DNA of 64,000 nucleotides from an uncultured Oscillospiraceae bacterium. Lineage in GTDB: Bacteria > Bacillota > Clostridia > Oscillospirales > Oscillospiraceae. Both the position numbers and the translations under genes were made by a program. The stretch lies in contig CAZLLK010000005.1 of assembly GCA_964560435.1 (NCBI GenBank), positions 5,711 through 69,710 of the forward strand, read 5' to 3'. Numbering within the stretch: position 1 is the stretch's first letter; every line of letters begins with the position of its first letter. Shown piece after piece: positions 6,681 through 62,451 of the stretch. The notes below the pieces were generated by a model. It was not told where the DNA came from. It ran no database searches and worked only from the letters and a program-made list of their open reading frames with translations.

Positions 6681-6750
6681 ATTCAAATAACCACCTCGAA
6701 AGAGTTACAGGGCGTTGCCGCTTTGCGGTGACGCCCTCAAAACAGGAGAA

Positions 6751-7884: not shown

Positions 7885-7887
7885 ACC

Positions 7888-7923
7888 AAAAAGCGAGTGG
7901 AGGAAATTCCACTCGCTTTTATT
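7888..7923 (+). terminator. Rho-independent terminator
   Basis: GCGAGTGG / CCACTCGC stem with an 8 nt loop, followed by TTTTATT. Confidence 0.75.
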
Positions 7924-8005
7924 ATATGCTCATATTTCTTCGAAACACTTTTTTGTCGCTTCCACATCACATCTAATGTGAAGTTGACCGTGCTCAAAAT
8001 GTGTT

Positions 8006-8500: not shown

Positions 8501-8502
8501 AG

Positions 8503-9351: not shown

Positions 9352-9626
9352 AAGTGTAATTCCCTCCAACTGGAATATTTTGCACTGATTTTCTATAAGA
9401 TGATACCCTGTTTTGCGAAGGGTGTCTATGATAATTTTGTAAATTCGGGTGGATTTTCCGTAAAAAACAGAATTTCTTTAAAATATTACACTTTAAGTCC
9501 TGCGAAATTTGTGCTATCATATGTTAGCTTATTATGCAGTAATGCTATATTTCTATAAACGGATAAAATAACAGCTCAAAAAATGTCACCACTTCATATA
9601 TATACAGAAAAGAAAAGGAGTATATC

Positions 9627-37398: not shown

Positions 37399-37402
37399 GA
37401 AA

Positions 37403-38698
37403 ATGGCTGATAAACAGGAATTAATTCAAGCGGTGGTTAACGGCGAAATGTCCGCTGTAGACTTCATATGCCAAACCGCTGAGGATACATATGCCCGCGC
37501 TCAAGAGAGAAACCCCGACATTCTCTGGTCGATGGACGCAATGCTTGCCCACTGGCACATGATTCGTGACGCCCACAAAAACGGCAAAAAAGTCATATTC
37601 TTTGGCGGTCCGGTTCCTATCGACATCATCTATGCAATGGACTGCGTTCCCTTCTACATGAATATGCTACCTACTCGCCTTTCCACCACACCCGAGATAA
37701 ACGGAAAATTTATCGACATAGCGGAAAAATTTGCGGCGCCCAGTATGTGCGGCATGAACAAAACCGAAATGGGTATTTTGCTTTCTGACCAGTTCGGTGT
37801 TAAGCCCGACGCTTTCATTTGGGGTACCGCGCCCTGCGACTCAACTCGCATAGCGTATCCGAACTTCCAAGCCATGCTTCACGTCCCCACATTCACCTTC
37901 GATATCCCCTTCCTCAGAGATGACCGCGGTCTTGAATACCTTGCGGCACAGAACGAAAAATTCATTACATGGATGGAAGAGTTCACCGGCACCAAGCTGG
38001 ATTGGGAAAAGCTGAAATATCGCATGGATTTGTCCAACCAGTCACTGGAGCTTATGGAGCAGTGCGCGAACCTCCGCAAGCACAAGCCATGCCCTCTCCC
38101 CAGCCGTATGCTGGTGCTTAACGAGCTGGCGTCTCCCATGTCATGCACACAAGAGCTGGTGGATATGTTCAAGCAGCAGCTCGCTACGGGTCAAATGATA
38201 ATCGATATGGGACTTGGCGCTTGCATGAACGGCGAAAAGCATCGGGCTTGCATACTCCAGAATATGCTGTGGTCGAATATCGGCACTCTGGACTGGATGG
38301 AAAGAGAATATGACACGATAACGGTTATGGATGGCTTTGGATATAAGGACAAAAACACCTTTGACGACTTGAACGATAGACACCTGTGCATGAAACAGCT
38401 TGGTCTTAAAATGATTGACACACCTATGGTTCACGGCGCCGGCGGCCCCGCCGATCGTTTTGTGAATATGGTGGACGGCATTATGGGTGATTACGGCGTT
38501 GACGTTTCAATATTTATGGGTCACGTCGGCTGCAAGCACACATGGGCCGTGGCGAAAATGGTTACCGACATGATTCAGCAGAAGTATGGACTTCCAACGC
38601 TTTATATCGACGTTGATAGTCTTGACGGGCGTTACAAATCCACAGAGGATATTAGAGCGTCAATTACCGAATACATGGATACCGTTGTTAACAAATAG
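37403..38698 (+). CDS. 2-hydroxyacyl-CoA dehydratase family, alpha-like subunit
   Basis: 431 aa from ATG 37403, after AAGGAGGG, and 5 nt past the upstream stop. HGD-D family features include the conserved Cys positions (APSMCGMNK, TAPCDSTR). Confidence 0.7.
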   Translation: MADKQELIQAVVNGEMSAVDFICQTAEDTYARAQERNPDILWSMDAMLAHWHMIRDAHKNGKKVIFFGGPVPIDIIYAMDCVPFYMNMLPTRLSTTPEINGKFIDIAEKFAAPSMCGMNKTEMGILLSDQFGVKPDAFIWGTAPCDSTRIAYPNFQAMLHVPTFTFDIPFLRDDRGLEYLAAQNEKFITWMEEFTGTKLDWEKLKYRMDLSNQSLELMEQCANLRKHKPCPLPSRMLVLNELASPMSCTQELVDMFKQQLATGQMIIDMGLGACMNGEKHRACILQNMLWSNIGTLDWMEREYDTITVMDGFGYKDKNTFDDLNDRHLCMKQLGLKMIDTPMVHGAGGPADRFVNMVDGIMGDYGVDVSIFMGHVGCKHTWAVAKMVTDMIQQKYGLPTLYIDVDSLDGRYKSTEDIRASITEYMDTVVNK

Positions 38699-39793: not shown

Positions 39794-40696
39794 ATGGAAG
39801 AAGAAAACAAAAGCGTTTTAGGCATTGCTTATCTTTACTCTACTATTTTAGCTATATTTGCGATAGCAACATATTTGCAGTTATTATTTTATAACCCTAT
39901 TGATAAGTATTATATAAAAGCTTTCGTATTATTATTTGGTACATATGCAGCAATTTGGTTTATATTGTTTAAGCTCAACAAAAAACGAAATCAAAGAATT
40001 GGCGAAATATTTAAAGATTGTACTGCCAGGAAAACAATAGGCGTTATTATTTTAATAAGCGGCTTTACCAGTTTGTTGGGATATATTATTAACGCCATTA
40101 GCTCTGCATCTATTATGCTCGAAACCGAAACGTTTTCGAGTATTATTCCAATTATTATATCTGTATTACTAGTCGTTTGTCAGGTTCTTATTGGATTATA
40201 CTTTTTGAAATGCAAACGCAAAACCGATGGAGTGTGCAAATCTGAAACCGTGATTGGCATTGCCTTTCTTTACTCAATTATTAACTTTGTTTTTTCTCTT
40301 GTAGAGAAGCTTTCACAGGCCACTATTTCTCAACATTCGTTAGATGAATATTTTTCCTTGTGGTTCGTGCCCTATGTTATAATATTGTTGGTATTATATA
40401 TACTCAACAACAAGCAAAGTCAAAGCTTTATTTCGATATTTAACAATAATACTATCAGAAAAGCAACAGGTGTTTTAGTATTAATAGAAGGCTTAATAAG
40501 CTTATCACTACTAATAAATACAGTTATAAACTCCATTTGGCTCAGAAGCTTTATCGGCGTAAATGGTTACCTCTTAGTTCAAAGTATTACCCGAAGTATT
40601 GTTGGTTTTTTAATTGTTGTGATCCAAATTCTTTTTGGAATATACCTGCTGAGGTTTAATAAAGAAAAAACCGCCAAACATTATATAGAGGAATAA
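39794..40696 (+). CDS. Hypothetical membrane protein with internal tandem duplication
   Basis: 300 aa. Its two roughly 150 aa halves align with each other (see finding). The gene is very AT-rich. Confidence 0.6.
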   Translation: MEEENKSVLGIAYLYSTILAIFAIATYLQLLFYNPIDKYYIKAFVLLFGTYAAIWFILFKLNKKRNQRIGEIFKDCTARKTIGVIILISGFTSLLGYIINAISSASIMLETETFSSIIPIIISVLLVVCQVLIGLYFLKCKRKTDGVCKSETVIGIAFLYSIINFVFSLVEKLSQATISQHSLDEYFSLWFVPYVIILLVLYILNNKQSQSFISIFNNNTIRKATGVLVLIEGLISLSLLINTVINSIWLRSFIGVNGYLLVQSITRSIVGFLIVVIQILFGIYLLRFNKEKTAKHYIEE

Positions 40697-40846
40697 TTTA
40701 CTGGAGGAATTCCCACATTTTTCACTCCCCTCTTCCAATTCTCCGCAAAATGTAGTATTTTTATAATTATCAAGCCGTATAAAATAAAAGGAGAAAAGTA
40801 ATGGAGCGCCCACTAATCGGAACGACTCCATTATACGTTAATACTT

Positions 40847-44625: not shown

Positions 44626-46671
44626 TCAGAAAAGTTTGGACAGCTCTTCGTTCAGCTTTTCTAGCTTGTCCACAGGTTTCAGGCAGATACTTCCTTTGCA
44701 AAGATAATACATCGCTCCGCTTTCGGGAATTCGGTACTCTGCGGTAAACGGAGCTATGGTGGAGAGCTTTTCTTCGTTTTTGGGAGTTTTCAGCAAAACC
44801 GAAAAATTATCTGCGGTCTTTTTTGAAATCAGCTCCGTGAGTTCTGCTGGCACTTCGTTTTCCGAAGTTACACAGACGAGTTCCGCAGAGGAGTATTCCG
44901 CCTCCATGAGTGCAAGCAAGGAAAGGCTGTGCGAAGACGGCTGCGCGGCGATCACTTTGGAGACAAAGTCAAGCTGTTTTTCGGCGGCTTCGCCGAACTT
45001 TTCGTCCGCCGTCAATTTCGAAAGCTTATTAAGGAACAGCGCCGCCGCAGAATTTCCTGATGGCATCGCGCCGTCATAAATAGGTTTGGGTCTTGTGATG
45101 AGCTGCTCCGCATCTTTAGAATACATGAAATACCCACCGTTTTTCTCGTCAAAAAACAGTTCGTTCATCACATTGGCGATTCGTGCCGCCATTGAGAGAT
45201 ACGAAACATCAAATGTTGCACCGTAAAGCTCCAGAAGTGCAAGCCCAAAAAACGCATAGTCGTCAAGCTGGCCTTCATTTGCAGCCTCATTATCCTTCCA
45301 ACGTAATTTTAGGTGTCCGTTTTCTCTCATTAGTTTACCGCATATGAATTCACCGGTCTTTATTGCCGCATCAAGATATTTTTCGCACCTAAATATCCTG
45401 CCCGCTCTTGCCAATGCTATTATCATAAGCGAGTTCCACGAGGTCAGAACCTTGTCGTCCTTATTGAGTTTTGTTCTGTGAAAGCGGTGTTCATATAGTT
45501 TTTGAGAAGACTCCGTTATTTTAGGGTCTTCCTCTTCATATGCTTCACATTTTATAAGATTGGGAACACTTTTGCCCTCGAAGTTGCCGCTCTCGGAAAT
45601 ATCAAAACGTCGGCAAAACACTTCCCCGTCCGTTTCACCCAAAACATTCTTAATGTCTGACTGGGTAAAAGCGTAGTATTTTCCCTCCACGCCCTCGCTG
45701 TCAGCATCCTGCCCGCACAAAAAGCCGCCCAGCGTGTCTGTCAACTCCGACAAAACGTAGTTAATCGTTTTTTCGGCAACGCTTTGATAAAAAGCCCGTC
45801 CCGTCAGTTCAAACGCCTTAGAATATGCCCACACGAGCAGCGCATTGTCATATAACATTTTTTCAAAATGCGGTATGAGCCATTTTTCGTCAGTGGAATA
45901 GCGCGAAAAACCGCCGCCGATGTGGTCAAAAATTCCTCCGCGGTACATATGCTCCAGTGTGCACTCCGCAATGTTCAAGGCCGACTCGTCATGTTCAAGT
46001 GCCGAAAAGCGAAGCAGGAAAATAAGATTGTGCGGAATCGGGAACTTCGGCGACGAACCGAAACCTCCCCATTTTTCGTCAAAGCTACGCGCAAAGCTCG
46101 TTTTTGCAGCTAAAACGAGCTCCTTTGCAGGCTTTCTAGAACCATAAGAAGCATTTTCCGCATTCTGCATATAGCTTGTTATTTGTTCGCCGCTGTCAAG
46201 CAGAGCCTTGCGATTTGTTTGCCATCGCTGCGAAATCGCGGATAGCAAATCAAGAAGTCCCGTCATGCCGTATCGCGAGTTTTTCGGCAGATACGTCCCC
46301 GCAAAAAACGGTTTTTTGTCCGGCGTCATAATAATGGTCATCGGCCAGCCGCCCGAGCCCGTCAACGCCTGACATACGTCCATATAAACCGCGTCCACGT
46401 CGGGGCGTTCCTCTCTGTCCACCTTCACTGCGATGAAACTGCCGTTCAGCATTTCGGCAACCTCATCGTCCTCAAACGATTCGTGCGCCATCACATGGCA
46501 CCAATGACAACAGCTGTATCCAATGCTGAGGAAAACGGGCTTGTCCTCCGCTTTGGCCTTGGAAAAGGCCTCTTCTCCCCACGGGAACCAGTCCACGGGG
46601 TTATGAGCGTGAGAAAAAAGATATGGCGATTTCTCGGTTATTAAGTGGTTGGGCGCTTTACTGTTAGTTAT
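44626..46671 (-). CDS. yyaL: Thioredoxin-domain protein of the YyaL/DUF255 type (thioredoxin fold plus six-hairpin glycosidase-like domain)
   Basis: [45 protein letters not shown] followed by about 600 aa. The ORF track starts at GTG 46596. The conserved N-terminus ([19 protein letters not shown]) is in frame upstream, back to an ATA at 46671 that sits 9 nt after AAGGAAG. Confidence 0.85.
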
Positions 46672-46687
46672 TAATCATCGCTTCCTT
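46501..46687 (-). repeat. 5' module copy 0 (part of the intact gene): RBS plus first ~52 codons up to CCHW
   Basis: Reference copy of the reiterated module. The junction codons CAT TGG are the reverse complement of CCAATG at 46501..46506. Confidence 0.95.
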
Positions 46688-46910
46688 TACTATAAACTTT
46701 TACTCTCAATTTAATATACCCCAAATAAAAAAAGATACTAATATCAAATTTGCAATATAGTCTTATTAGCGGAATATAGTTTTGTTTGCACACAAAACTA
46801 TATTTATCGCCTTTAGACTGAATTAATTCACACAATTTGGTATTTATGTTATAATTATGTGATACTTAATATGTTTTGTGTTATATGTCAAATTATTGGG
46901 GGTACTTATT

Positions 46911-47471
46911 ATGAGAAAAATATGGTTTGCTTTGTTTTTTGTAATTATGGTTACTTGTATTGGATTTATTATATACTTAAGCCCATATACCATTAGCAAT
47001 AATGAAACACAATTAGAGGATATTATACTGAGGTTTATTAACAGACCCACTGCAATTGCTTATAATATTGATATTAAACAAGAACTAAACCTTGATAACA
47101 AAAAGCATGTCTTGTATACAATAGATAATGAAATGGGTGAAGCAGAATTAACTAGAGGTATTAACAATAAATACAAAATGGAATTTGTAAGCTATGGAAG
47201 TTCCCTATTTAAATGTGACGTAAGAAAAACAAACAAGGGTAAATATATTTTCCTACAAGGCAAAAACGTTGATAACGAAATTGCGTATGTCAATGTACAA
47301 TCGGGTTCCGATGAATATAGAATCGATATTCCTCAACAGGAGTTCTTTGTGGTTAGTTGCCCAGTTCCAATTGATACTCAACTCGGATTTGTCGCTGCTA
47401 ACACTATAAAATTCTTCAATAATAACGATGCTAATATTACTAATGAGATGCTAGAAATTATACTTAAATAG
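46911..47471 (+). CDS. Hypothetical N-terminally anchored protein (cassette 1 cargo)
   Basis: 186 aa from ATG 46911. It has one N-terminal TM helix (IWFALFFVIMVTCIGFIIYL). AT-rich. I recognise no family. Confidence 0.5.
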   Translation: MRKIWFALFFVIMVTCIGFIIYLSPYTISNNETQLEDIILRFINRPTAIAYNIDIKQELNLDNKKHVLYTIDNEMGEAELTRGINNKYKMEFVSYGSSLFKCDVRKTNKGKYIFLQGKNVDNEIAYVNVQSGSDEYRIDIPQQEFFVVSCPVPIDTQLGFVAANTIKFFNNNDANITNEMLEIILK

Positions 47472-47535
47472 CTCTTAATGCCCTTACGGAACGAAGTAAT
47501 TTAATTTCCTCAAAAAGCTTGAAATTTAGTTGTTT

Positions 47536-47748
47536 CATTGGTTCAAGTAGCGGAATTGACGCCAATGGCAACAGCTGTATCCGATGCTGAGGAATACAGG
47601 CTTGTCCTCCGCTTTCGCTTTCTCAAACGCCTCATCGCCCCATGGATACCAGTTCACGGGGTTATGGGCATGGGAAAGCAGATAGGGGGATTTTTCACAA
47701 ATTAATCTGTTTGGCACATTACTGTTAGTTATAGGGCATCACCTCCTT
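47536..47748 (-). repeat. 5' module copy 1 plus tail motif
   Basis: Encodes [51 protein letters not shown], then diverges into the tail (RQFRYLNQ stop). RBS AAGGAGG is at 47742..47748. Confidence 0.95.
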
Positions 47749-47982
47749 ATTTGTTTCATAATTCGATATTTAATTCCCGAATTAATATTTACAAATTGAG
47801 CGGATAAATACTCAACTGCTAATAACATAAGTCATTCCAATAATGGACTTTTAAATTATTCTTGAAATTGGGTGTTCTAGATAATACTATGAGCACGAAA
47901 TCTATGATAGATTTCAATACTATTAACTAAAGTATTATTCGAACCTGAATCAGCAAGAAAAAATATATATAAAGAGGTTGAA

Positions 47983-48453
47983 ATGAAAAGGAAAATACTA
48001 TGGTCGTTATTTGTGTTATACTGCATTATTGCCGTGTATTTCTTGTTCTTATGGAATCGAGTACCTTATGTAGGCACTCGTACTGATTATATAAAGTCAT
48101 ACATGAACCTTATTCCATTTAAAACAATTTCGAATTCTTTCTTGCTGGCTATACAAGAGTCCAAATTTTTAAAAAATGGTCGCTTCGGCGGATTAATATG
48201 TATTATTAATCTCGTAGGGAATATTATAGTCGCTGTTCCTCTTGGTATCCTCTTGCCAAGTCTTTTCAATAGGTTTAATACTTTCACATCATTCATTCAA
48301 ATTACTTTAGCAATAGTCTTAATTGTTGAATTATTACAATTATTTTTCATGGTTGGAAGCTGCGATATTGATGATTTAATTTTGAATGTAATCGGTGCAT
48401 TGATGGGGTTTGGTATCTTTAAAACAAAATGCTTCCGAGAATTGCGTAATTAA
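47983..48453 (+). CDS. VanZ family protein (cassette 2 cargo)
   Basis: 156 aa with four TM helices and VanZ-like motifs (NLIPF, NLVGNIIVAVPLGILLP, CDIDDLILNVIGALMGF). Confidence 0.75.
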   Translation: MKRKILWSLFVLYCIIAVYFLFLWNRVPYVGTRTDYIKSYMNLIPFKTISNSFLLAIQESKFLKNGRFGGLICIINLVGNIIVAVPLGILLPSLFNRFNTFTSFIQITLAIVLIVELLQLFFMVGSCDIDDLILNVIGALMGFGIFKTKCFRELRN

Positions 48454-48534
48454 AACAGAAATATATTAATATAGTTAGAGGTTATGAATTTCCCAGGAAC
48501 AATCTATCAATTTCAATTGCGCATTGATAAGCAC

Positions 48535-48751
48535 CATTTGAGCAAGTAATCAGAGCGACACCAGTGACAGCAGCTGAAGGCGAAGTTGAGGAATATAGGC
48601 TTGTCCTCCGCTTTAGCCTCAGAAAACGCTTCCTCGTCCCATGGATACCAGTACACGGGGTTATAAGCATGTTGTAATAAATAAGTAGACTTTTCATTTA
48701 TCAAAGCATTGGGTATTTTCTTGATTGATGTCATAGTATAACCCCCTTTCG
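48535..48751 (-). repeat. 5' module copy 2 plus tail motif (most divergent copy)
   Basis: Encodes [58 protein letters not shown], then the tail CRSDYLL. Confidence 0.95.
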
Positions 48752-48899
48752 TTTCTTTGATATTGCACATATTACAGTTGCCCGCTATGTTATAAATTAT
48801 ACCTTGACTTGAAGCCATATAGCATTGACTTTGTCGTGACATTTTCCCCCTTACATGCTATGCTAGTATGAAAAGCTAGAAAGAAGGTTATGTGATTTC

Positions 48900-49763
48900 A
48901 TGAAAGATATTAGAATTGTAATCGTTGATGACTCGGCTTTCTCAATTTCATTTATTAGAAACATTCTCGGTAATAATGGGTTTGATGTTGTTGGTGATGC
49001 CGGCTCACTGGAAGAAGTGAAAGCAGTTGTTAAAGACAAGAAACCTACTTTGGTAACGATGGATATGACCTTGCCCGGGACAGACGGACTTGAGTGTACT
49101 CGTGCTATACATGAAATTGATGAAAATATCAAAGTAATCGTTATCAGCTCTATGATGGATGAAGAAATTGTAAACGAGGCAAAGAAAAACAAAGTATCAG
49201 CCTACATTCAAAAGCCCGTTGACGCTGATGAGCTTCTCACGGCAATTAATAGGGTTATGGCTTCTGATGAACTGTATCAGTTTCTGGAAGATGAATACTT
49301 TGCGGTATTTAAAGAAGCTCTTATGGATGGAATGAATAAAATGACCAAAACCCTCCTAACATACACGGATGAATATTCTTCTGCCGAAAAACATGAATCA
49401 GCAGGTATGACAATTATTATCGGAATTAGCGGCAAGTTTTCAGGCCGGATGCTCATTGATTTATCAAATGAAACCGCTACAAACATAGCAACCGCAATAT
49501 TCAGGAGCGAACCGAAAAACAGCGATGAAATGATGGCTGCACTTGGAGAATTCGCAAATATCATAGCCGGAAATGCATGTTCTATTCTGAATAGAAAGAA
49601 CAAGGCTTTAGGACTTCGTTTAGCTCCGCCTTCTATCCTATCCGGTGATAGTGTTCTCATATCGGCTCCTACGTTCGAAACAACCACCGCAAAAGCCGAA
49701 ACAAATTTTGGTGAACTGTTCCTGAATGTAGGTTTCAAAAAGGGGGCAGAAGAGTGGATTTAA
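48900..49763 (+). CDS. CheY-like receiver fused to CheX/CheC-like phosphatase domain (cassette 3 cargo)
   Basis: REC domain (IVIVDDS, LVTMDMTLPGTDG, YIQKP) plus a C-terminal segment carrying GEFANIIAGNA. Confidence 0.75.
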   Translation: MKDIRIVIVDDSAFSISFIRNILGNNGFDVVGDAGSLEEVKAVVKDKKPTLVTMDMTLPGTDGLECTRAIHEIDENIKVIVISSMMDEEIVNEAKKNKVSAYIQKPVDADELLTAINRVMASDELYQFLEDEYFAVFKEALMDGMNKMTKTLLTYTDEYSSAEKHESAGMTIIIGISGKFSGRMLIDLSNETATNIATAIFRSEPKNSDEMMAALGEFANIIAGNACSILNRKNKALGLRLAPPSILSGDSVLISAPTFETTTAKAETNFGELFLNVGFKKGAEEWI

Positions 49764-50215
49764 AATATATAAACCCCTTTATTCAATCCTTCACCTCAGT
49801 AATGCCCGAGTTGGGATTTGGCGATGTGAAAATGGGCACTCAGAATGGCAAAGGTAAAGAAATAACAGGTTCGGGGGTCTTTGTTATATTGGGCATCGTT
49901 GGAGCTATCAGGGGCAATGTCGTTTACATAATAAATATAGAGTCTGCTAAGCAAATAGCATCGACCATGATGATGGGCGCTCAGGTAGATGAATTTGACG
50001 ATATGGCCAGCAGCGCAATATCGGAATTAACGAATATGCTAACCGCTAATGCAGCAACCGCTTTCTCTAACGGTGGGATTTTAATCGATATTTCAACTCC
50101 GACAATGCTTCAAGGAGAAAATATATCTATTAATATGAGTTCCGATCAGGTTCTTTGCTTCCAACTCTTAGCTGATGACATTCCGATTGAAATCAATATA
50201 TCATTTGAAACCTGA
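49754..50215 (+). CDS. CheX-like chemotaxis phosphatase (cassette 3 cargo)
   Basis: 153 aa with INPFIQSFTSVM and ISELTNMLTANA. The GTG start overlaps the upstream gene. Confidence 0.7.
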   Translation: MDLKYINPFIQSFTSVMPELGFGDVKMGTQNGKGKEITGSGVFVILGIVGAIRGNVVYIINIESAKQIASTMMMGAQVDEFDDMASSAISELTNMLTANAATAFSNGGILIDISTPTMLQGENISINMSSDQVLCFQLLADDIPIEINISFET

Positions 50216-50323
50216 AGTGGTTTTTTAGGTCATTACCTTAGCCTTCCAATAAAATCTCTTGCATATCTCAACTATTGCAAAGGGTGTCCATTTTGACACC
50301 CTTTGCAATTTTATCTAATTTCG

Positions 50324-50536
50324 ATTTGGTTCAAGTAATCAAATTGCCACCAATGACAGCAGCTATATCCGATGCTGAGGAAAACGGGCTTGTCCTCGGC
50401 TTTGGCTTTTTCAAACGCTTCGTCGCCCCACAGGAACCAGTCCACGGGGTTAAACATGTGTTCACAAGATAAGGCGATTTTTCATTAATTAAACTGTTTG
50501 GATCTAATTCACTCATCACTAAATAATCACATCCTA
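50324..50536 (-). repeat. 5' module copy 3 plus tail motif (frameshifted)
   Basis: [17 protein letters not shown], then a 1 nt frame change, after which [37 protein letters not shown] is read in another frame. The tail is WQFDYLNQ. Confidence 0.95.
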
Positions 50537-50642
50537 ACTTGTCATTCTCAAACTATCTATCCAGAATCCCCTATATGTTGACTTTTATAACAACTTATAG
50601 GATAATTTATCCAATAGTAGCTGTTTTATCCCGGAGGTTAAT

Positions 50643-51518
50643 ATGAAAGTATTGGTATTAGGCGGTACCCGTTTTTTTGGAACACATATGGTCCATTCAT
50701 TATTGGATAAAGGGCACAGTGTTACTATTGCCACGAGAGGAAACGCAAAGGATAATTTTGGGCAAAAAGTTGAGAGAATCACCATTGAACGTACCAACGC
50801 TGATAGCTTAACAAAAGTATTATGTAACCAGTATTTTGATGTGGTTTGTGATAACCTTGCGTACTGCTCAAATGATGTAAAAGTTCTATTGGATTGCTTA
50901 AAGTGCGAAAGATATGTGATGACTTCTTCGGCATCTGTCTATATTAGTCAACATCTTCATACGAAAGAAAACGAGTTCAATCCACTATCTCATACTCTAA
51001 AGTGGTGCTCTCGACAGGATTATTCTTATGATGAAATAAAACGTCAGGCAGAATGTGCATTATTTCAGACATATTCTGGCTTGCCAGCAGTTGCTGTTCG
51101 TTTTCCTTACGTTATCGGACAAGATGATTATACCCAGAGATTGTTTTTTTATGTTGAGCAAACTATTAAACGAAATCCTATGTATGTTGATAATCTGAAT
51201 GAACAAATTAGCTTTATTGAATCAACTGAGGTGGGAAATTTTCTTTCATGGGTTGCAGAGCAGAAATTTACTGGAACTATAAACGGAAATAATATTGGTA
51301 CTATTTCCTTGAAAGAAATAATTTACTATGTAGAACAAAAAACTGGAAAAAAAGCAGTATTCTCGGCTGAAGGATTAACCGGGCCATATAACGGGCAAAA
51401 GTCATTTAGCCTTGATACTGAACGCGCTAATAGTTTGGGATATACTTTTTCTGAATTAAACGGGTGGATTTATGAATTGATAGATAGCTATATTAAGAAA
51501 GTGAATTTATATCTTTAA
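50643..51518 (+). CDS. NAD-dependent epimerase/dehydratase family protein (cassette 4 cargo)
   Basis: 291 aa with the Rossmann motif VLVLGGTRFFGTHMV. Confidence 0.75.
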   Translation: MKVLVLGGTRFFGTHMVHSLLDKGHSVTIATRGNAKDNFGQKVERITIERTNADSLTKVLCNQYFDVVCDNLAYCSNDVKVLLDCLKCERYVMTSSASVYISQHLHTKENEFNPLSHTLKWCSRQDYSYDEIKRQAECALFQTYSGLPAVAVRFPYVIGQDDYTQRLFFYVEQTIKRNPMYVDNLNEQISFIESTEVGNFLSWVAEQKFTGTINGNNIGTISLKEIIYYVEQKTGKKAVFSAEGLTGPYNGQKSFSLDTERANSLGYTFSELNGWIYELIDSYIKKVNLYL

Positions 51519-51590
51519 AGAGTAAGACTGACATCAGTTATTTGACATTGCTACAATTTGTAATTACGTAACAAATCTTATTGCTTTAAT

Positions 51591-51803
51591 CAAATGAGCA
51601 AGTAATCAGAACGGCACCAATGGCATCTGCTATATCCGATGCTGAGGAAAACGGGCTTGTCCTCGGCTTTGGCTTTTTCAAACGCTTCGTCGCCCCACAG
51701 GAACCAGTCCGCAGGGTTGTGGGCGTGAGAAAAAAGATATGGCGGTTTTTCGTTTTTTAAGTAGTTGGAGTTCTTTTACTTGTTTACAATGAGCCACCTC
51801 CTC
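51591..51803 (-). repeat. 5' module copy 4 plus tail motif (no start codon, CC changed to RC)
   Basis: No ORF of 60 aa or more exists here. The nucleotide homology is clear (…GATGCTGAGGAAAACGGGCTTGTCCTCGGC…). RBS GAGGAGG is at 51797..51803. Confidence 0.95.
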
Positions 51804-51927
51804 AAAAATCAAATGAATAAAAAAGCAAAAGGATACTTATTATAGTATCCTTTTATTGCTTAATTGACCGTGTCAATTTAAAGTTAGGCTTGACTCTTAC
51901 CTTCCGAGAATTGATTTCAGTTGATTA

Positions 51928-52494
51928 TTATATGTAATTTGCTTTTTTCCAAAATGTTTTTTCGTGTAGTGAATTATTTAATATCGCAAATACTCCATAT
52001 CCAATTAAGCCGCCAATCGTGTTAAAAATTAAATCGTCGACATCTGCACGTCGTCCGATAAAATATTGGAACGTTTCAATGCAGACGATAAATGCTACGA
52101 TGCACAGCACCGTTTTCCACCACTTTCTACAGTTTTTAAACACAACGGGCAATATAAACCCTGCTGGTATTAGCATAATCAAGTTAATCAATACCTGCTT
52201 TGATATTTCTGTTATACCTATTTCGTTTATTTGTTTCATCCAAATAAACGGCACAAGATTCATATAATGATGTTCAGGATTAAGTGTAACATAACCATCA
52301 ATTAATATTGTCCCAAATGTCACATATAGAATACTTAATAAAACTACGATAAAAGTAAAATTAGCAAAATGGCGTTTAAATGGTCTTTTTCCATATTTTT
52401 TTCTTTTCACAAAATGCACAGGCAAGTAAAGTAAAAGTGATACTATTGTCACTCCTGGCAACACCATAATCAAATAGCCTAATAGAATACTCAT
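51928..52494 (-). CDS. VanZ family protein (cassette 5 cargo)
   Basis: 188 aa with VanZ-like motifs (NLVPF, LINLIMLIPAGFILP, ADVDDLIFNTIGGLIGYG). Confidence 0.75.
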   Translation of the reverse strand: MSILLGYLIMVLPGVTIVSLLLYLPVHFVKRKKYGKRPFKRHFANFTFIVVLLSILYVTFGTILIDGYVTLNPEHHYMNLVPFIWMKQINEIGITEISKQVLINLIMLIPAGFILPVVFKNCRKWWKTVLCIVAFIVCIETFQYFIGRRADVDDLIFNTIGGLIGYGVFAILNNSLHEKTFWKKANYI

Positions 52495-52669
52495 TATTCA
52501 TTTCTCCTCAAAATACAAATAATTTGTTATTCCTAAAACGTCTTTGCTTTTTTTCATGCATACCATCATCACTCATTGAAAACCACTTTTTTGTCTACAG
52601 TCTGCAATATATTTGTCTGTATTTAATTATTATGTCGTTTTTTATATATAGTTGCTGTAATAAATATAA

Positions 52670-53245
52670 CTAAAGCAATAAGAAAAATCGATACCGCAAA
52701 AAAATATAATCAGCAGTATAAGATTGCGCTTTATGGTTATCTTCTTTTGATTGTGGATTTTGTACGCTAGCATTGGTCAGAGCAGATGGTTTCTTTGCTT
52801 TCTCATCCAACCTTTTTTGTGCTTCATAGTATTCTCCGTCATTTATATATTCTTCATAACGAATTACCAATTCGTCTTGTTCGCCTACAAGCTTTAAGCT
52901 CTTATAGTCATCGGATGTGCTTTTGAAAACCCAAGTATCATCAATCTTATCGTCATCTAACAAAACTGCTACAATAAAGTCTCCAGTTTGGGGCTTATCA
53001 CTTGTCCCGTGATATTTATCAAACTTCTTTATTTGAACCTCAGATTGTTCGATGCTCCCCATCATTACCGAAGATGGTGTGATAGTTATTGTGTCGGTAT
53101 CAATAGCCGTAATTTTCCCAATGAATAGTGCCTTTTGTTCTCCTGCCATAAACGACTCAGGTATATCTCCCGCGAAAGCATTTAGACTCGTCAATGGCAA
53201 TAACACAAGAAATAAAAGAACAAAATTGCAAACTTTTTTCAACAT
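52670..53245 (-). CDS. Secreted hypothetical protein (cassette 5 cargo), C-terminus possibly altered by a homopolymer frameshift
   Basis: Signal peptide MLKKVCNFVLLFLVLLPLTSLNAFA. An A7 tract lies at 52698..52704 (see finding). Confidence 0.55.
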   Translation of the reverse strand: MLKKVCNFVLLFLVLLPLTSLNAFAGDIPESFMAGEQKALFIGKITAIDTDTITITPSSVMMGSIEQSEVQIKKFDKYHGTSDKPQTGDFIVAVLLDDDKIDDTWVFKSTSDDYKSLKLVGEQDELVIRYEEYINDGEYYEAQKRLDEKAKKPSALTNASVQNPQSKEDNHKAQSYTADYIFLRYRFFLLL

Positions 53246-53552
53246 TTCAAGTTCCTCCTAACAGCTCTTCTCCGACAAGTAATGTATCGAAATTATATTT
53301 TGTACTTTTATCTAAAAGAAATCATACATTATTTAACATTATATATTATAAAATATCCCAATGTCGAATATTGTCGAAATGTAATAGCAGGGTACCGTTG
53401 TGCATCTGATCCAAAGAATCATAACTTAAATAGCAAAATATAAAGGAAATATTTTCATGTATGTGAAATATGTAATAGAAATACACTTCTGAATAAACTG
53501 AGTTACAAATCCAATTTATTTTCAACTTTTTGATACATTCCCTGACAAATGT

Positions 53553-53770
53553 CAGTTGAGCAAGTAAATAAAACGATACCCAATGGCAGCAGCTATTTCC
53601 AATGCTGAGGAAAACGGGCTTGTCCTCGGCTTTGGCCTTGGAAAAAGCCTCTTTTCCCCACGGAAACCAGTCCACGGGGTTGTGAGCGTGAGAAAAAAGA
53701 TATGGCGATTTTTCGTTTTCAAGTGGTTGGGGATTCTGCTATAAGTCATTTTCAACACCGGCAACATTTT
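53553..53770 (-). repeat. 5' module copy 5 plus tail motif (frameshifted; outermost copy)
   Basis: ATG 53749: [10 protein letters not shown], then a 1 nt deletion, then [31 protein letters not shown] in another frame. The tail is VSFYLLAQ. Confidence 0.95.
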
Positions 53771-54446: not shown

Positions 54447-55124
54447 ATGAAGAAACTGATTGTTTTATGTATGAGCGTTATACTGCTCATGAGCGCTCTG
54501 TCCGGCTGTGGGGATAAAATCGTCAAACCGACGGAGTCGCCAAAAGCATCTGCGGAATCGCCGCAAGCGCCTAACGTAGAAAAAGATAATTATCCTGTTG
54601 AATTGTCCAGCTCGGAGATTGCCGATTTTCAGACCGCCTTTAGCGCTGACGAAAATTACGGTTTCCTGCTCTCTGACTATAGCGATATTCGTGATATCGA
54701 TTTGTACCAGGTGCTTTACACAGGCGCAGGAATGGTTGACCCCGAAAACGCAGAAGAAATAACCACTGCTTATCTGGCTGCAATTGGCGAAACAGAGCTA
54801 TTTACCGATTGCACTATCCTAACCACAAAGCAACTCGATAACTTTTTGCTCTCGAAAACAGGGTATAAGCTTTCAGAAATGAAAAACACCTTAGGATGGG
54901 AATATATCGAAGCATATGACGCCTATGTCAATCAGCACGGTGATACAAACTACTTCGCCGCAACCTGCACTGGCGGCCGCGCTATCAGTCCAGACGTGTA
55001 CGAAATCGAATATGTATTTGAAGGCGGATTATATAGCACCGACGGCGAACTTTTTTCCGGTGGAACTGTGACCGTTAACACTGCGGGCGTTGCCTTGCAG
55101 TTCATTTCCAACATCATACACTGA
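54447..55124 (+). CDS. Lipoprotein, function unknown
   Basis: Lipobox LMSALSGC|GD. 225 aa. Confidence 0.6.
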   Translation: MKKLIVLCMSVILLMSALSGCGDKIVKPTESPKASAESPQAPNVEKDNYPVELSSSEIADFQTAFSADENYGFLLSDYSDIRDIDLYQVLYTGAGMVDPENAEEITTAYLAAIGETELFTDCTILTTKQLDNFLLSKTGYKLSEMKNTLGWEYIEAYDAYVNQHGDTNYFAATCTGGRAISPDVYEIEYVFEGGLYSTDGELFSGGTVTVNTAGVALQFISNIIH

Positions 55125-55181
55125 TACTTCAAATTCCTGAAGGTAGCTTGGCAGAAACGCCAGGAAATTTTCCGTCTCAAC

Positions 55182-55232
55182 AAAATAGATGCAAGTCGTT
55201 GGCAAAACGACTTGCATCTATTTTGTTTTTTT
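55182..55232 (+). terminator. Rho-independent terminator
   Basis: AAAATAGATGCAAGTCGTT / AACGACTTGCATCTATTTT, a 19 bp stem, then GTTTTTTT. Confidence 0.85.
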
Positions 55233-55295: not shown

Positions 55296-56639
55296 TTAAT
55301 TTGCATCCCTATGGTGTAGGAACCTACGGCCCTTTACGTTTGCGTTTTTAACTTCCTCAACTTCATTCTTTTCACCAGCTTGTTCAAGATCCTTGAGTTC
55401 TTCTAATCTGTTCTCCGCTCGCTTCTTCAAAACTGCCGATATTTGAGTATTCATTTTTGCTTTGTGATAGTAATTTCTTGCTTCTTTGATATTTCCAAGC
55501 TTAGCATTTAATTCGCCAATTGTCATAACAAGCTGTATTTCACCGTCCGCTGACAAATCCAACTCCAGATAAGCCTTCATATATTTATCAAGGGCTTGCT
55601 TTGACAAATTCATTTCCATTTGCTCGTCTTTACAGTCTTGATACAGCCAGCTAAGCTTATGCAAAAGCTTTGCCTGAATTAGTTGGGCTTTTGAAAAGCT
55701 ATTTGGTGCACAAAACAATGCCAAATAGTATCCTGCAAAAATAGATGCAGTATCGGGCTTAGTTCCAAACTGAAAGTTAACAGTTTTTTTAAGCTTTTCT
55801 AGTTCTCCCGCCAAACCTGTTTCTAGGTCTTCAGCTTTTTCGAATATATTCTCCAACGCACTATATAGGCAATGTGGACAGGTTATTACCTCATAATAAA
55901 CCGGCTCAAAATCTTTATAATGCTTGCGCAGGTCATCATCTATGGTTGGGGCTCCAAGTTTGGACGATAGTATCTTTAGTCCTTTGAACTTGTTGCCACA
56001 TACAGGGCACCTGTAATCTGCCTCGCATATGCTTGTGTTGTCATTAGTTAACGTTAATTTATACTCGCCCGTGTGTCCTTCGGGGAACAATTTGAAGTCA
56101 ACCTGTGACGCAACCACCGCTCTTCCATCAATAAGTGGATCAGCAGGCTGAAGCCTATCATCTGCTTGATCGCATTTATTCAGAATGTTTGGCTTCGTTT
56201 CGGTGTCTTTATTAGCTAATATTGGTTTGCGTTCTATCCACATATTGCCTGTAGCAGCTTCATAATCATCTCTTATTTTTTCAACGCGGTCATACATGGC
56301 TTTCATGAGCTCATATGCAAATTTAGGTTCCCCTACGATAAATGAAGCCAAGCTGATCTCGCTAATTGGTAGTGCGATTACATCAGTAATTGCACTCGAT
56401 GTAATATGCAATCTTTTTTTGGAAAACACTAATGGTGTATCAAAGAAGTCACCTGGACCAACAGTTTCAATAACAGTATCATCCAGGCTATTTATTATAG
56501 CAACTTCACCTTGAAAAACCACAAACATTTCAGTGCCTGTTCCGTCTCTGCTAAATATTGTTCCACTTTCATATTTTCTAACTTGTGAAAAATCTTGTAA
56601 CGTTTCTATTTTGATCAACGGTATGCCCCCCACAATCAT
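55296..56639 (-). CDS. cNMP-binding-domain protein fused to a zinc-ribbon/helical (DUF2225-like) module
   Basis: N-terminal cyclic-nucleotide-binding-like barrel (GTIFSRDGTGTEMFVVFQGEVAI). Central CPVCGNKF...CPHCLYSA. Helical TPR-like C-terminus. Confidence 0.55.
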   Translation of the reverse strand: MIVGGIPLIKIETLQDFSQVRKYESGTIFSRDGTGTEMFVVFQGEVAIINSLDDTVIETVGPGDFFDTPLVFSKKRLHITSSAITDVIALPISEISLASFIVGEPKFAYELMKAMYDRVEKIRDDYEAATGNMWIERKPILANKDTETKPNILNKCDQADDRLQPADPLIDGRAVVASQVDFKLFPEGHTGEYKLTLTNDNTSICEADYRCPVCGNKFKGLKILSSKLGAPTIDDDLRKHYKDFEPVYYEVITCPHCLYSALENIFEKAEDLETGLAGELEKLKKTVNFQFGTKPDTASIFAGYYLALFCAPNSFSKAQLIQAKLLHKLSWLYQDCKDEQMEMNLSKQALDKYMKAYLELDLSADGEIQLVMTIGELNAKLGNIKEARNYYHKAKMNTQISAVLKKRAENRLEELKDLEQAGEKNEVEEVKNANVKGRRFLHHRDAN

Positions 56640-59907: not shown

Positions 59908-62451
59908 TTATGCGATCTGATAGATATAGATAGCAGCGGTGGTTGTGTCTGTGGTGGAAGTGGGCAGTACGTATGCTACGTCATTTGCGCCAGCATAGGT
60001 CAGAGCAGCAGCCTGGTCCGCAGTAATCTGAGAAACTGTGGTGGTTGTGCCGTTTACGCTGCAGAGGTAGATTGGGCATGTGCCGCTGAGGACGTAAGCA
60101 CCATTGGGAGTTCCTGTGATTGTCATTGTGCCGTTGAAGTGTGCAACAGCTGTCAGAGCAGTGTGGGTTACACCAGAAAGTCCTGTGGAAGCACCACCGG
60201 AAACGACAGCGCCGTTAGCTGCGTAATCCTTTGTGAAGTACAGAGTGCCCTTGTCGAGTGCGCTATAGCTGGTGACGGTCTTGTTAACTACGCCATTGAC
60301 AATTGCCTCGTAGGAGTAGAGCGATGTTCCATTTGCATCAATTGTTGTGGTAGCAGTGCTGGTTACAAACACCTTGTCATAAGAAGAGGTGGATGCAGTG
60401 GTTGTGCCGCCGGAGCAGATAACTACCTGAGCATAGGTGTTAGTTGCAGAATCTGAAAGGACGTAGATTGTGCCGCCTGCTGCGTAGGAAGCTGCGTTTG
60501 TAATGCCAGTCTTTACAGTGTAGGTCTTTGCGATTGCATCATAATACATGAAGATTGTGCTTGAAGTTGCAATCTTAGAAGTGGTGTATGCTGTGGTAGC
60601 ACCGGTCCAAGTTCCATCACTAACTGCAGTTGCAGCGCCGAGGAACTGAGCGCGGTTGCCGGTTACTACGAAGGATGTGTCGGCAATGTCAAGAAGAGTA
60701 TTGCTTACACCCTTTGTAAGGTCGGTAAGATTTGCGGTCTGGTTTGTTGCAGCGGTCAGGTTGTAGGAACCGTCAGCGTTTACAGCGTAGGTATAGAAGA
60801 TGCCTGCGCCGAGGTTGCCGTTAGCGGATGAACCTGCGGTTGTGCTTGCTACTGCGGTCATAGCGCCACCGAAAGCAGAGGTCTTAGCAACTGTGATAAC
60901 TGCCTGAGTGCCGTCCATCTTAACAACGTTTGCCTTATAGGTCGTTGTGCCGAAGGAGGAGGAGGTATCGGTTGCAGCAACAAAGAATGTGTTGCTTACG
61001 GTTGCAACGTTGGTGGAAGCTACGGTGTAGCAGATGTTCTTGCCGTTGTCAAGATAGAAGGAGAAGCCTGCTTTGCCGATGAGAGCCTGCTGTTCTGCAA
61101 GTGTGTCATAAGCAGCGGGTGCGCCTGCAAGTCCGGAAACGGAATACTTAACTCCGCCAATGGTTACATAAGTTGCAGTGTAAGAAGCGATAGCGCCGGT
61201 AACTACAGCTGCCTTCTCGACATAGGTCATGCCGGTTGCAGATACGTAGTAGAGGATAACGTCGCCCTTTGCAAGGCCAGCGGGGAAAGATACGTTGGTG
61301 GTGTTGAGATTAGCAAGGGGAGCAGCGCCAAAGGTGATAGTTGTGACTGAGCCGGAAGTTGTTGTAACAGGAGCTGCAGCAAGCTGGAGAACAGTCTTAA
61401 CTGTTACAGAAACCTTGTCATACTTGCTGTTGTTATCTGTATCGATGAACTGAACTACAGCGCCGGGGGTTGCAGCATAGCCCTTGATGGTGGCTTCGTT
61501 GTTAGCAACTGTATCAGTTGCGGGATAAGAGAGTGAAGCTACGCCGTCATTGTAATAATAGGTAACTGCTGCATCTGCCTGATACTTGATGTAGGAGGAG
61601 TTGGTAGCTGTTACAAGGTCTGCATAAGGTGTGCCGTCTGTGCTGGAAGCGAGAACTACGTCACTGGAAACGAAAGAGGTAAGTTCTGTTGAACCTAATT
61701 TCCAGAAGTATCCAACTCTGCCGCCTGCGATTGTAGCAGTCTTCGAAAGAGTTGAGTAGACATCTTCAGCGATCTGGAGGTAGTTGTCGCTATTGATATC
61801 GTTTGTGTTCTTTGCTGCGTTTGTGTAAGTAGCAAAGAGCTTGTTGTAGGAAACTTCGGGAACCTTTGTCAAAGCATTGAACACATAGAGGGCTGCTTCT
61901 TCACGAGTAGCTGCTTTTGTGTAATCGCTTGACTTGGTGCCAGTGAATACGCCGAGCTTGTTTGCGGATACTGCAACATTGAGTTCCCAGCTGGGGCCGA
62001 TGAATTCATTTGCTGCGCCGTGGCCTGCTGCGCAGAGCATCATCTTTGCGAGCTGATAGGCGGTGACATTAGCTGTGGGAGCAAATGTGCCGTCGCCCAT
62101 GCCGTTGATAATTCCCTTGCTTACGCAGTAAGCGATGAAGGGGGCAGACCAACGGGAGTTAGCAACATCCGAGAATCCGGTAGCGGTTACGGAAAGTCTA
62201 GATGCTACTGTGGGGCCGAGGACAGCATAGGTAATCATTTTTGCTGCCTCTTCGCGGGAGATTGTGCCTGTGGGTTTGAAGGAACCGTCGGTATAACCGT
62301 TGATTGCGCCGATGCCTGTCATAACACCGACTGCCTCTGTGTACTGAACGGAAGCGGCATCGGAGTATGTTGCTGCAGAAGCAATGCCGAACATTCCGAA
62401 TACCATAACCAGTACGAGTACGAGGCTAAGAGTTCTGTTCAGAGATTTCAT
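59908..62451 (-). CDS. S-layer / cell-surface protein with N-terminal SLH domains
   Basis: 847 aa. Signal peptide ...FGIASA|AT. Three SLH repeats (YSDAASVQYTEAVGVM, FSDVANSRWSAPFIAY, ...). The body is long and rich in Thr, Ala and Gly. Strong RBS GGAGGAG. Confidence 0.85.
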   Translation of the reverse strand: MKSLNRTLSLVLVLVMVFGMFGIASAATYSDAASVQYTEAVGVMTGIGAINGYTDGSFKPTGTISREEAAKMITYAVLGPTVASRLSVTATGFSDVANSRWSAPFIAYCVSKGIINGMGDGTFAPTANVTAYQLAKMMLCAAGHGAANEFIGPSWELNVAVSANKLGVFTGTKSSDYTKAATREEAALYVFNALTKVPEVSYNKLFATYTNAAKNTNDINSDNYLQIAEDVYSTLSKTATIAGGRVGYFWKLGSTELTSFVSSDVVLASSTDGTPYADLVTATNSSYIKYQADAAVTYYYNDGVASLSYPATDTVANNEATIKGYAATPGAVVQFIDTDNNSKYDKVSVTVKTVLQLAAAPVTTTSGSVTTITFGAAPLANLNTTNVSFPAGLAKGDVILYYVSATGMTYVEKAAVVTGAIASYTATYVTIGGVKYSVSGLAGAPAAYDTLAEQQALIGKAGFSFYLDNGKNICYTVASTNVATVSNTFFVAATDTSSSFGTTTYKANVVKMDGTQAVITVAKTSAFGGAMTAVASTTAGSSANGNLGAGIFYTYAVNADGSYNLTAATNQTANLTDLTKGVSNTLLDIADTSFVVTGNRAQFLGAATAVSDGTWTGATTAYTTSKIATSSTIFMYYDAIAKTYTVKTGITNAASYAAGGTIYVLSDSATNTYAQVVICSGGTTTASTSSYDKVFVTSTATTTIDANGTSLYSYEAIVNGVVNKTVTSYSALDKGTLYFTKDYAANGAVVSGGASTGLSGVTHTALTAVAHFNGTMTITGTPNGAYVLSGTCPIYLCSVNGTTTTVSQITADQAAALTYAGANDVAYVLPTSTTDTTTAAIYIYQIA

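Follow-up and report, generated by a model that had tools for sequence, protein, structure and literature searches.

We analysed a 64,000-nucleotide stretch of contig CAZLLK010000005.1 from an uncultured Oscillospiraceae bacterium (hereafter the window), in which the 5' end of a minus-strand yyaL gene occurs six times, the copies being separated by foreign cassettes. The sequences make it likely that this locus is a stack of attachment (att) junctions, built at an attB site in yyaL that is used by a clade of SPbeta-like large serine recombinases (LSRs). In this model the C-H-W-C codons of yyaL would serve as attB, strands being exchanged at the TG of the Trp codon, and a unit would consist of a ~25-nt P' half-site (the tail), foreign cargo, and a module made up of the yyaL promoter, ribosome-binding site (RBS) and first ~52 codons. 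Insertion at attB would leave the resident 5' end upstream, joined to the incoming P' arm in an attL-type (B-O-P') junction, and would put the incoming 5' module ahead of the remaining yyaL. Every incoming module of the window is fused in frame and has a gene-type (B) left arm; each insertion would thus have re-created an attB-type site, allowing a further unit to enter at that very nucleotide and a stack of five to form.

Six copies of the yyaL 5' end share one breakpoint

A repeat search detected a single family of this kind, comprising six direct copies of a 192-nt sequence at 46496-46687 (the reference copy), 47557-47748, 48556-48747, 50345-50536, 51612-51803 and 53575-53766, with the five outer copies showing 66-78% identity to the copy in the gene. 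Each module spans ~190 nt of the minus strand and contains an RBS region and ~52 codons of a YyaL/DUF255 protein. In 6/6 copies the module ends on that strand in ...TG(Y) CA(Y) TGG, the C-H-W codons, and the final G of TGG lies at plus-strand coordinates 46501, 47562, 48561, 50350, 51617 and 53580. Only the copy ending at 46501 continues into yyaL (TGCCATGTGATGGCG...), whose intact open reading frame (ORF) matched Pfam Thioredox_DsbH (E = 8e-77). In the other five, homology to the gene stops 0-5 nt past TGG, TG.C still being common to most of them.

The DNA between the modules, 0.8-1.7 kb in each case, is unrelated from one unit to the next. Its cargo has a GC content of 0.29-0.39, compared with 0.43-0.50 for the modules and 0.48 for the rest of yyaL. 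In Pfam searches, neither the ten ORFs between 44.6 and 55.1 kb nor 30 further ORFs elsewhere in the window showed the domain of an integrase, a transposase or a recombinase. A sequence-only reading of this DNA had described six modules starting at these positions and broken at the C-H-W codons, AT-rich cargo between modules of host-like composition, and an absence of integrases, transposases and IS ends from 44.6 to 55 kb; the repeat search, the TGG ends, the GC values and the domain searches agree with that description. Rfam gave no match over 43-56 kb, and PADLOC detected no convincing defence system in the cargo of the window.

A conserved tail defines related junctions

Directly past the break, the five displaced modules (c1 to c5, numbered outwards from c0, the present 5' end of the gene) carry a conserved tail of ~24 nt that is absent from the intact gene. 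Across 25 distinct junctions, the consensus is CAYTGG followed at the break by TGGCAATC.G.TTACTRTAACCA; beyond this stretch the information content is zero. The tails of the window fall in the same motif family (TG.C......TTACT), while other tail families were found at related loci L009, L010, L025, L032, L042 and L054.

When a truncated-module ORF was used as the query of a large protein collection, 42/42 matches were short YyaL N-terminal fragments, many of them ending in CHW plus tail-encoded residues such as WQSGYCNH. A second query, a consensus of fragment and tail, gave 4,957 matches, and the best 120 of the 4,957 were all 53-112 amino acids long. Among the related loci, which number more than 60 in all, are the contexts of the short-fragment matches and 25 metagenome loci identified with a refined junction pattern. 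The same architecture was seen at more than 35 genome or metagenome loci, with 1-3 units each and unrelated accessory cargo; the sequence-only reading had proposed a search for other arrays with different cargo. This cargo included MerR, PadR and HxlR regulators, a UbiD/UbiX operon, methyltransferases, a TIR protein, a DUF4411/ImmA pair, VanZ and a 7.3-kb metabolic island, and several of the loci end in an intact yyaL. Identical or related in-frame cassettes were found behind varied upstream contexts and at varied array positions (L011/L016/L018/L035/L013, L014/L019/L025 and L008/L015), which indicates that in-frame cassettes have spread.

A narrower junction pattern (TACTTG plus the Cys-Cys codons) returned chance matches only, in viral contigs (L001/L002) and species-representative genomes (L003/L004), and GenBank phages gave one weak, unannotated module match. 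Plasmids contributed one more attL-type junction, on the 55.9-kb plasmid pHD04 of Paenibacillus sp. IHB B 3084 (L054; NZ_CP013207.1), where an unannotated displaced module at ~54962-55126 is followed by the tail TGTCATGTCCCCAAAATACACCTACTTAAAC; a second module copy was reported elsewhere in that record.

Some related loci hold further elements. Past its second junction, L007 contains a larger element (6590-10145) with an AAA ATPase and S8 peptidase pair, which we take to be reminiscent of the IetAS anti-phage system, along with a small resolvase, an HTH_17 protein and a Phage_endo_I/HIRAN protein. In L016 (407-1455, oriented), two ORFs that by eye resemble IS630-type transposases truncate the 5' part of a displaced module, a secondary decay of that array. 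A cassette of L022 includes an IS66 Orf2 fragment, and L037 harbours a phage-like element, whose LSR would be expected at its far end.

The junctions have the anatomy of serine integrase sites

In addition to the in-frame modules, the related loci contain a second class (class B) that reads ...SIGYS, a stop codon, an extra 17-45 nt and then TGYCAYTGG. Complete sites, with both the extra arm and the tail, form imperfect palindromes of ~52 bp whose axis is the TG of the Trp codon. Palindrome scores were 20/26 for L050 and 16/26 for L007_1919, against a null mean of 6.8 (P(>=16) = 0.00025). For two recombinase-less mini-elements with both ends available, L033 (0.85 kb) and the MerR cassette of L007, attP sites assembled in silico scored 17/26 each, whereas their junctions as found scored 9-11.

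The spacing of the arms was informative as well. The motif HGGNTAY, which corresponds to the Ile-Gly-Tyr codons, lies at -19..-13 in the gene's own left arm (34/41 sites). Its mirror image occurs in family-1 tails at +18..+24 and at no other offset (22/28), and the class B left arms that were checked have the motif at -24..-18 (4/4); all of these positions lay outside the junction search pattern. According to a published structural model of serine integrases, the motif recognised by the zinc-ribbon domain is 5 bp nearer the centre in attB half-sites than in attP half-sites (PMC3783163). Family-1 tails show this 5-bp shift, although the window's own tails match the distal motif at only 3-5 of 7 positions. 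Because the offset of the arm motif fits the 5-bp rule, we identify the tail as a P' half-site and the extra arm as a P half-site. By this anatomy, an in-frame displaced module with its tail is an attL (B-O-P'), and a module with the extra arm that runs on into the gene is an attR (P-O-B').

All site types, namely attL, attR, attP and regenerated attB, were present among the related loci, including attL and attR pairs of the canonical type in L033 and L017 and an attR in L047. They support the proposal, already made from the window alone, of site-specific integration with a replacement 5' end followed by accretion. P-O-P' junctions were found inside two arrays (L007_1919 and L008_1039), implying pairings other than attP x attB. 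The window has five attL-type junctions and a gene-proximal attB-type site (B-O-B'), with no attR-type site and no P arm.

Other interpretations of these sequences were considered and set aside. A selenocysteine reading of the fragments ending in SIGYS and a stop fails on three counts: the stop may be TGA, TAG or TAA, the ORF that follows lies in a different frame, and the 17-45 nt inserted in between have the properties of a P arm. By eye, the tail consensus bears no resemblance to Xer/dif-like sites, IS200/IS605-type ends, Tn7-like ends or integron core sites, and we saw no convincing symmetry on the scale of a tyrosine-recombinase core (inverted 9-11-bp sites with a 6-8-bp spacer). The 13-bp palindrome GGTTAC-T-GTAACC is more plausibly a piece of the P' distal motif than an independent operator.

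Large serine recombinases are encoded beside the same core

A protein-level scan of viral contigs for the module yielded 14 loci, and in five of them (L040, L043, L046, L047 and L050) a protein of ~500 amino acids adjoins the CHW site. Pfam identified Resolvase and Recombinase domains in 5/5 of these proteins and Zn_ribbon_recom in 4/5; judged by this domain architecture, they are LSRs. The closest solved structure to the L050 protein was the SPbeta integrase (E = 1e-29). Among LSR relatives in viral contigs, the core TGYCAYTGGTG lay within about 100 nt of the end of the LSR gene in 23/45, compared with a chance expectation of ~0.01 per locus. Some of these 23 have a full yyaL module, while others have only the palindromic site around the core. 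A search for the module or tail beside a recombinase gene had been suggested in the sequence-only reading, and its outcome points to the serine type. The idea that a novel kind of recombinase is at work finds no support, the junction anatomy being that of LSRs, with LSR genes beside the same core in viral contigs. The 202-amino-acid small resolvase of L007 was rejected as the acting enzyme, lying 3 kb from the junction and having no counterpart at any other locus.

On a group of 96-158-kb viral contigs (L071-L079 from IMG/VR sample 3300045988 and L083 from sample 3300029305), and also at L065/L066, an LSR gene is followed by a palindromic attP. These attP sites are built on the yyaL core with no module, for example GGAGCAAGTTTTAAACTTGCCAT[TG]GTGCCACGTGTAGAACTTTCTCC, and such elements would, from their sequence, simply disrupt yyaL.

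Mosaic modules point to homologous exchange

The modules of the window are mosaics of one another. The 5' half of c4 is c5-like (45/50) and its remainder c3-like (48/50 and 47/50), and c0 has a c1-like untranslated region and last 20 nt around a c5-like body. Since the modules are mosaic, a second process besides integration, homologous exchange between modules, appears to act on the array. All six share a Cys-Cys variant of the usual SIGYS-T-CHWC motif, which is found in L011, L013, L016, L035 and L037 as well.

RecA-type exchange between modules of ~150 nt may likewise be the origin of the in-frame cassettes, and the means of their spread, from split cassettes that bear a P arm. Where a displaced host module recombined with a module carried by an element, an attR scar would stay in the chromosome and a circle with an in-frame module and a P' arm would be released; such a circle could re-enter any yyaL by a single crossover. 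We propose this route because it fits both the mosaics and the stand-alone split alleles described below; it would account for the host-like GC of all six modules of the window as well.

Split yyaL alleles

A stand-alone yyaL in two pieces, with no mobile element or LSR alongside, is present in Desulfitobacterium chlororespirans DSM 11544 (L055, 10001-12119; GCA_900143285.1). Split alleles of this type (L055 and L057-L064) consist of a 53-54-amino-acid ORF ending in SIGYS and a stop, ~40 nt, and a 626-638-amino-acid ORF in another frame. The split allele P0030 was found on 22 contigs, 8 places being examined. From their layout, we read the stand-alone split alleles as attR-type scars. The second ORF called in L055 begins past the CHWC motif, and the thioredoxin-type active site may consequently be untranslated there.

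At the prophage attR of L047 (7660-7720, on the same contig as L084), the P arm holds the stop codon of the module ORF as well as a GAGGA Shine-Dalgarno-like sequence and an in-frame ATG (ATG TTT ACT TGT CAT TGG...). With this arrangement, integration would lead to expression of yyaL in the form of two polypeptides. In L033 and L008_1039, the position of the L047 ATG is taken by an in-frame GTG.

Weighing the LSR model against its alternatives

Several observations weigh against the proposal that LSRs made the junctions of the window. No LSR gene was found by Pfam in the 64-kb window (10 ORFs of the array region and 30 others, 40 in all), so the enzyme would have acted in trans, from a phage or other element. 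An LSR for family-1 arms, the family of the window, was never found adjoining such an arm, and both the family-1 P' and the TTACTTG subfamily of the window were absent from the viral collection. The P' arms of the window reach only 3-5/7 on the distal motif, and two of them are altered beside the centre, that of unit 1 by a GCG and that of unit 5 by the insertion of 1 nt. Canonical serine integrases recombine attP with attB only, and attL with attR only in the presence of a recombination directionality factor (PMC3783163). A circle with an in-frame module would present B-O-P', a non-canonical substrate, and the in-frame units therefore need a second step such as repair, gene conversion or homologous recombination. 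The mosaic modules, and the host-like GC that all of them show, agree with homologous recombination no less well than with LSR action. With no attR (P-O-B') in the window, excision of its units by canonical attL x attR recombination is not possible. With no P arm or attR, with degenerate P' arms and under canonical LSR rules, they look trapped rather than actively mobilised. The sequence-only reading is supported in that the units have no recombinase in cis; its idea of mobilisation in trans is qualified by their trapped appearance.

It has been proposed from the window that the array is integron-like, and the outcome does resemble an integron: small cassettes, none with a recombinase, line up in order at a single site and bring in a variety of accessory genes. 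A system of that kind would involve a tyrosine recombinase and folded attC-type sites. However, no tyrosine recombinase was found among the window ORFs or in the cassette regions of the related loci examined, no attC-like site was seen in either, the unit boundaries are a 150-nt coding module and a 24-nt arm instead of an attC with R''/R' core sites, and the cargo is mostly antisense to yyaL. The LSR site anatomy effectively refutes an integron-like reading, and we consider it highly improbable. That the array is an assembly artefact or a simple tandem duplication is barely conceivable. Repeats can mislead short-read assemblers, and the Logan assembly of run SRR13723396 is interrupted within c3 and c4; but this independent assembly is 100% identical to the window over 45253-49292 (c0-c1-c2) and over 50414-51658 (c3 to c4), the c4-c5 cassette being the part with no independent support. 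The copies also differ by 9-34%, the cargo between them is wholly unrelated, and the same architecture recurs in dozens of unrelated assemblies.

Homologous recombination might suffice by itself, with no site-specific recombinase ever involved at this locus. Circles with a ~150-190-nt copy of the yyaL 5' end would enter by a Campbell-type single crossover and exit between flanking modules, and the common breakpoint would be the end of an ancestrally captured fragment. Such a process would produce the internal crossover points seen here (c4 c5-like and then c3-identical; c0 c1-like, c5-like and again c1-like), suits six modules that are host-like in GC and closer to each other than to modules elsewhere, suits a window with no P arm, attR or recombinase, and offers in module x module exchange the simplest source of the stand-alone attR-type split alleles. 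Yet it leaves unexplained a 24-nt tail conserved beside unrelated cargo in many organisms, the mirroring of the gene arm motif in that tail exactly 5 bp further out, and the 52-bp palindromes (tail plus P arm) beside LSR genes, and modules of 66-78% identity are poor RecA substrates; we judge it unlikely. We think it quite unlikely, too, that the in-frame cassettes are still mobile, being taken up or released in trans by a relaxed Ccr-like LSR that accepts B-O-P', so that the array is a working integron analogue and not a fossil. The occurrence of the same in-frame cassettes at different array positions and in different genomes argues for such activity, as do the P-O-P' junctions of L007_1919 and L008_1039, which need non-canonical pairings, and the staphylococcal cassette chromosome (SCC) elements, in which LSRs build tandem islands with recombinase-less units (bioRxiv 10.1101/336396). 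But the P' arms of the window are degenerate, no cognate LSR was detected among the window ORFs or in the viral collection, and such pairings are foreign to canonical LSRs (PMC3783163). A broader idea, which we offer tentatively and doubt more than we favour, is that LSRs and RecA-dependent 'healing' of attR to attB by way of the displaced copy make up a gene-capture platform in anaerobic Firmicutes. Miniature non-autonomous cassettes, each made of a P' arm, cargo and the yyaL promoter with its 5' module, and some of them also having a P arm, would then be mobilised in trans and could stack without limit at the yyaL C-H-W-C codons.

Relation to known systems

The stack of junctions proposed here has its closest analogue, as far as outcome is concerned, in the SCC composite islands. 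SCC elements use Ccr LSRs and target a conserved housekeeping gene, rlmH/orfX, whose end is restored by the element, some 15-18 nt being restored at the rlmH 3' end. The two systems thus have in common the LSR family, a conserved target gene that is restored, and tandem recombinase-less units with direct repeats; the window shows the corresponding layout of five units and six modules, with the gene continuing from the last module. In contrast to SCC, the yyaL elements bring a promoter, an RBS and ~52 codons of a 5' end, their target is yyaL and not rlmH, and there is no ccr-like gene in the window. Among solved structures the related LSRs are nearest to the SPbeta integrase, the elements occur in anaerobic Firmicutes and metagenomes instead of staphylococci, and their units may be as small as 0.85 kb. 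Composite SCC islands consist of tandem units, some of them devoid of a recombinase (pseudo-SCC), and direct repeats of the attachment core stand between the units (bioRxiv 10.1101/336396).

With the SPbeta type of element (SPbeta in spsM, skin in sigK and A118 in comK) the yyaL elements share an LSR with Resolvase, Recombinase and zinc-ribbon domains, encoded beside attP at related viral loci, an attB within coding sequence, probable exchange at a central dinucleotide, and the 5-bp shift of the zinc-ribbon motif between P and B half-sites. Those elements split their gene and restore it on excision, whereas many yyaL elements carry a replacement 5' module, either in frame or split with a new start, and form arrays. 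The integrative and conjugative elements (ICEs) of the SXT/R391 family give prfC a new promoter and 5' coding end, and to that extent the supply of a promoter and 5' end to a target gene is alike; unlike the yyaL elements, they use a tyrosine recombinase, are large and conjugative, and do not form stacks of recombinase-less units of 1-2 kb. Integrons, too, collect small cassettes in order at a single site, and these cassettes bring diverse accessory genes and encode no recombinase; integrons rely, however, on the IntI tyrosine recombinase encoded next to attI and on folded single-strand attC, neither of which is present in the window. Islands at tRNA genes, accretion of ICEs and cis-mobilisable elements, and tycheposon arrays also grow in tandem, with partial copies of the target between units, some of which lack an integrase. 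They differ in using tyrosine recombinases, for which attL and attR remain substrates, whereas the yyaL sites follow serine-integrase logic.

The literature searched, in full text, contained no description of yyaL as an attachment site or of such a stack, in agreement with the sequence-only reading, which knew of no such system at this gene. The enzyme family and the logic of its sites are those of the already known serine integrases; the use of the yyaL site and the stack are not described in that literature. Large serine integrases are usually viewed as one-phage, one-site, one-way enzymes. Here, the thioredoxin-motif codons of yyaL, the most conserved part of a gene that is widespread, appear to be the target of a whole LSR clade, and the spare promoter and 5' end that many of the elements carry would let the host gene survive, intact or as two pieces. 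Recombinase-less elements down to 0.85 kb have proper attP arms, and in many uncultured anaerobes accessory genes pile up at the site in ordered stacks. Should the cassettes indeed be mobilised in trans, they would constitute an integron-like capture device derived from a different enzyme family, and if the platform idea holds, it would be a serine-recombinase counterpart of the integron in which the target gene is kept working. The natural attB/attP pairs, with their 5-bp shift in dozens of variants, also provide comparative data on site recognition by LSRs for use in genome engineering. Annotation pipelines at present label these junctions as short 'DUF255/YyaL' proteins.

The array unit by unit

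All sites and modules of the array lie on the minus strand. The part of yyaL 3' of the crossover (the B' side; 44626-46500, minus strand) encodes the rest of the thioredoxin-like domain and a six-hairpin domain, as judged from the ORF and Pfam. It is reached through the attB-type site (B-O-B') at 46476-46529, centred on the TG of the Trp codon (46503-46502), the sole junction that runs into the gene. Module c0 (46501-46687) provides the present 5' end, with an RBS region and ~52 codons. At the place of the expected start codon, c0 and c1 have ATA (TAATAACTAAC and CCCTATAACTAAC, respectively), compared with ATG in related modules such as that of L011 (CCCTATGAAC). From an in-frame TGA up to the GTG of Val27, no canonical start codon occurs in the intact yyaL (46596-46690, minus strand). 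By sequence, yyaL may therefore start at ATA, start late and lack the conserved first 26 residues, or be poorly expressed.

Pfam assigned the cargo of the five units to two VanZ-like proteins, a CheY-CheX fusion, a CheX-like protein and an epimerase-like protein, and two proteins had no family match. Unit 1 (GC 0.29) encodes a 197-amino-acid membrane-anchored protein with no Pfam or PADLOC match (46878-47471, plus strand). In its P' arm (47537-47561), which makes an attL-type junction with c1, GCG replaces GTG beside the centre and the distal motif, TGGTTCA, matches at 5/7. Module c1 (47562-47748), a displaced yyaL 5' end, has a 60-amino-acid ORF that begins at GTG. The cargo of unit 2 is a VanZ-like protein (47983-48453, plus strand; PF04892, E = 1e-25), and its P' arm (48536-48560), GTGTCGCTCTGATTACTTGCTCAAA, matches the distal motif at 3/7. 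It adjoins c2 (48561-48751), the most diverged copy among the displaced 5' ends, which public assemblies annotate as a 73-amino-acid gene (P0001). In unit 3 (cargo 48900-50215, plus strand), Pfam identified a CheY-receiver/CheX fusion at 48900-49763 and a CheX-like protein at 49754-50215; the P' arm (50325-50349), GTGGCAATTTGATTACTTGAACCAA, is the nearest of the window copies to the family-1 consensus, with 5/7 on the distal motif.

The displaced modules are decaying. Module c3 (50350-50536) has a 1-nt deletion in its coding part. Next comes the cargo of unit 4, an NAD-dependent epimerase/dehydratase-like protein by Pfam (50643-51518, plus strand), with the P' arm GTGCCGTTCTGATTACTTGCTCATT (51592-51616; distal motif 3/7), and then the chimeric displaced module c4 (51617-51803), whose 3' two-thirds are of the c3 type and in which a Cys codon has changed to Arg (AGC AGA TGC). 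Unit 5 encodes, within 51928-53245 on the minus strand, the second VanZ-like protein (51928-52494) and a 191-amino-acid secreted protein without a family match (52670-53245), and its P' arm (53554-53579) has a 1-nt insertion beside the centre (GGTATCG...TTTACTTGCTCAAC). The outermost displaced 5' end, c5 (53580-53770), has a 1-nt deletion and a Tyr to Asn change and is 91.5% identical to c0 over 153 nt; if each unit entered at the gene, as the model has it, c5 would be the oldest module of the array.

Other features of the window

At 90% identity, the MetK of the organism was a singleton. The window encodes three 2-hydroxyglutaryl-CoA dehydratase D-component paralogues (6715-7884, 36268-37398 and 37382-38698) and SLH-domain proteins (32253-33122 and 59908-62451), in keeping with an anaerobic Firmicute. 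A stretch at 39794-40800 is AT-rich (GC 0.32-0.36 versus ~0.5 alongside) and contains a 300-amino-acid ORF with no Pfam match; it could represent a further foreign insert. Between the convergent genes at 54447-55124 (plus strand) and 55296-56639 (minus strand) lies a perfect inverted repeat of 22 nt with a 5-nt loop (55179-55227), most likely a bidirectional terminator.

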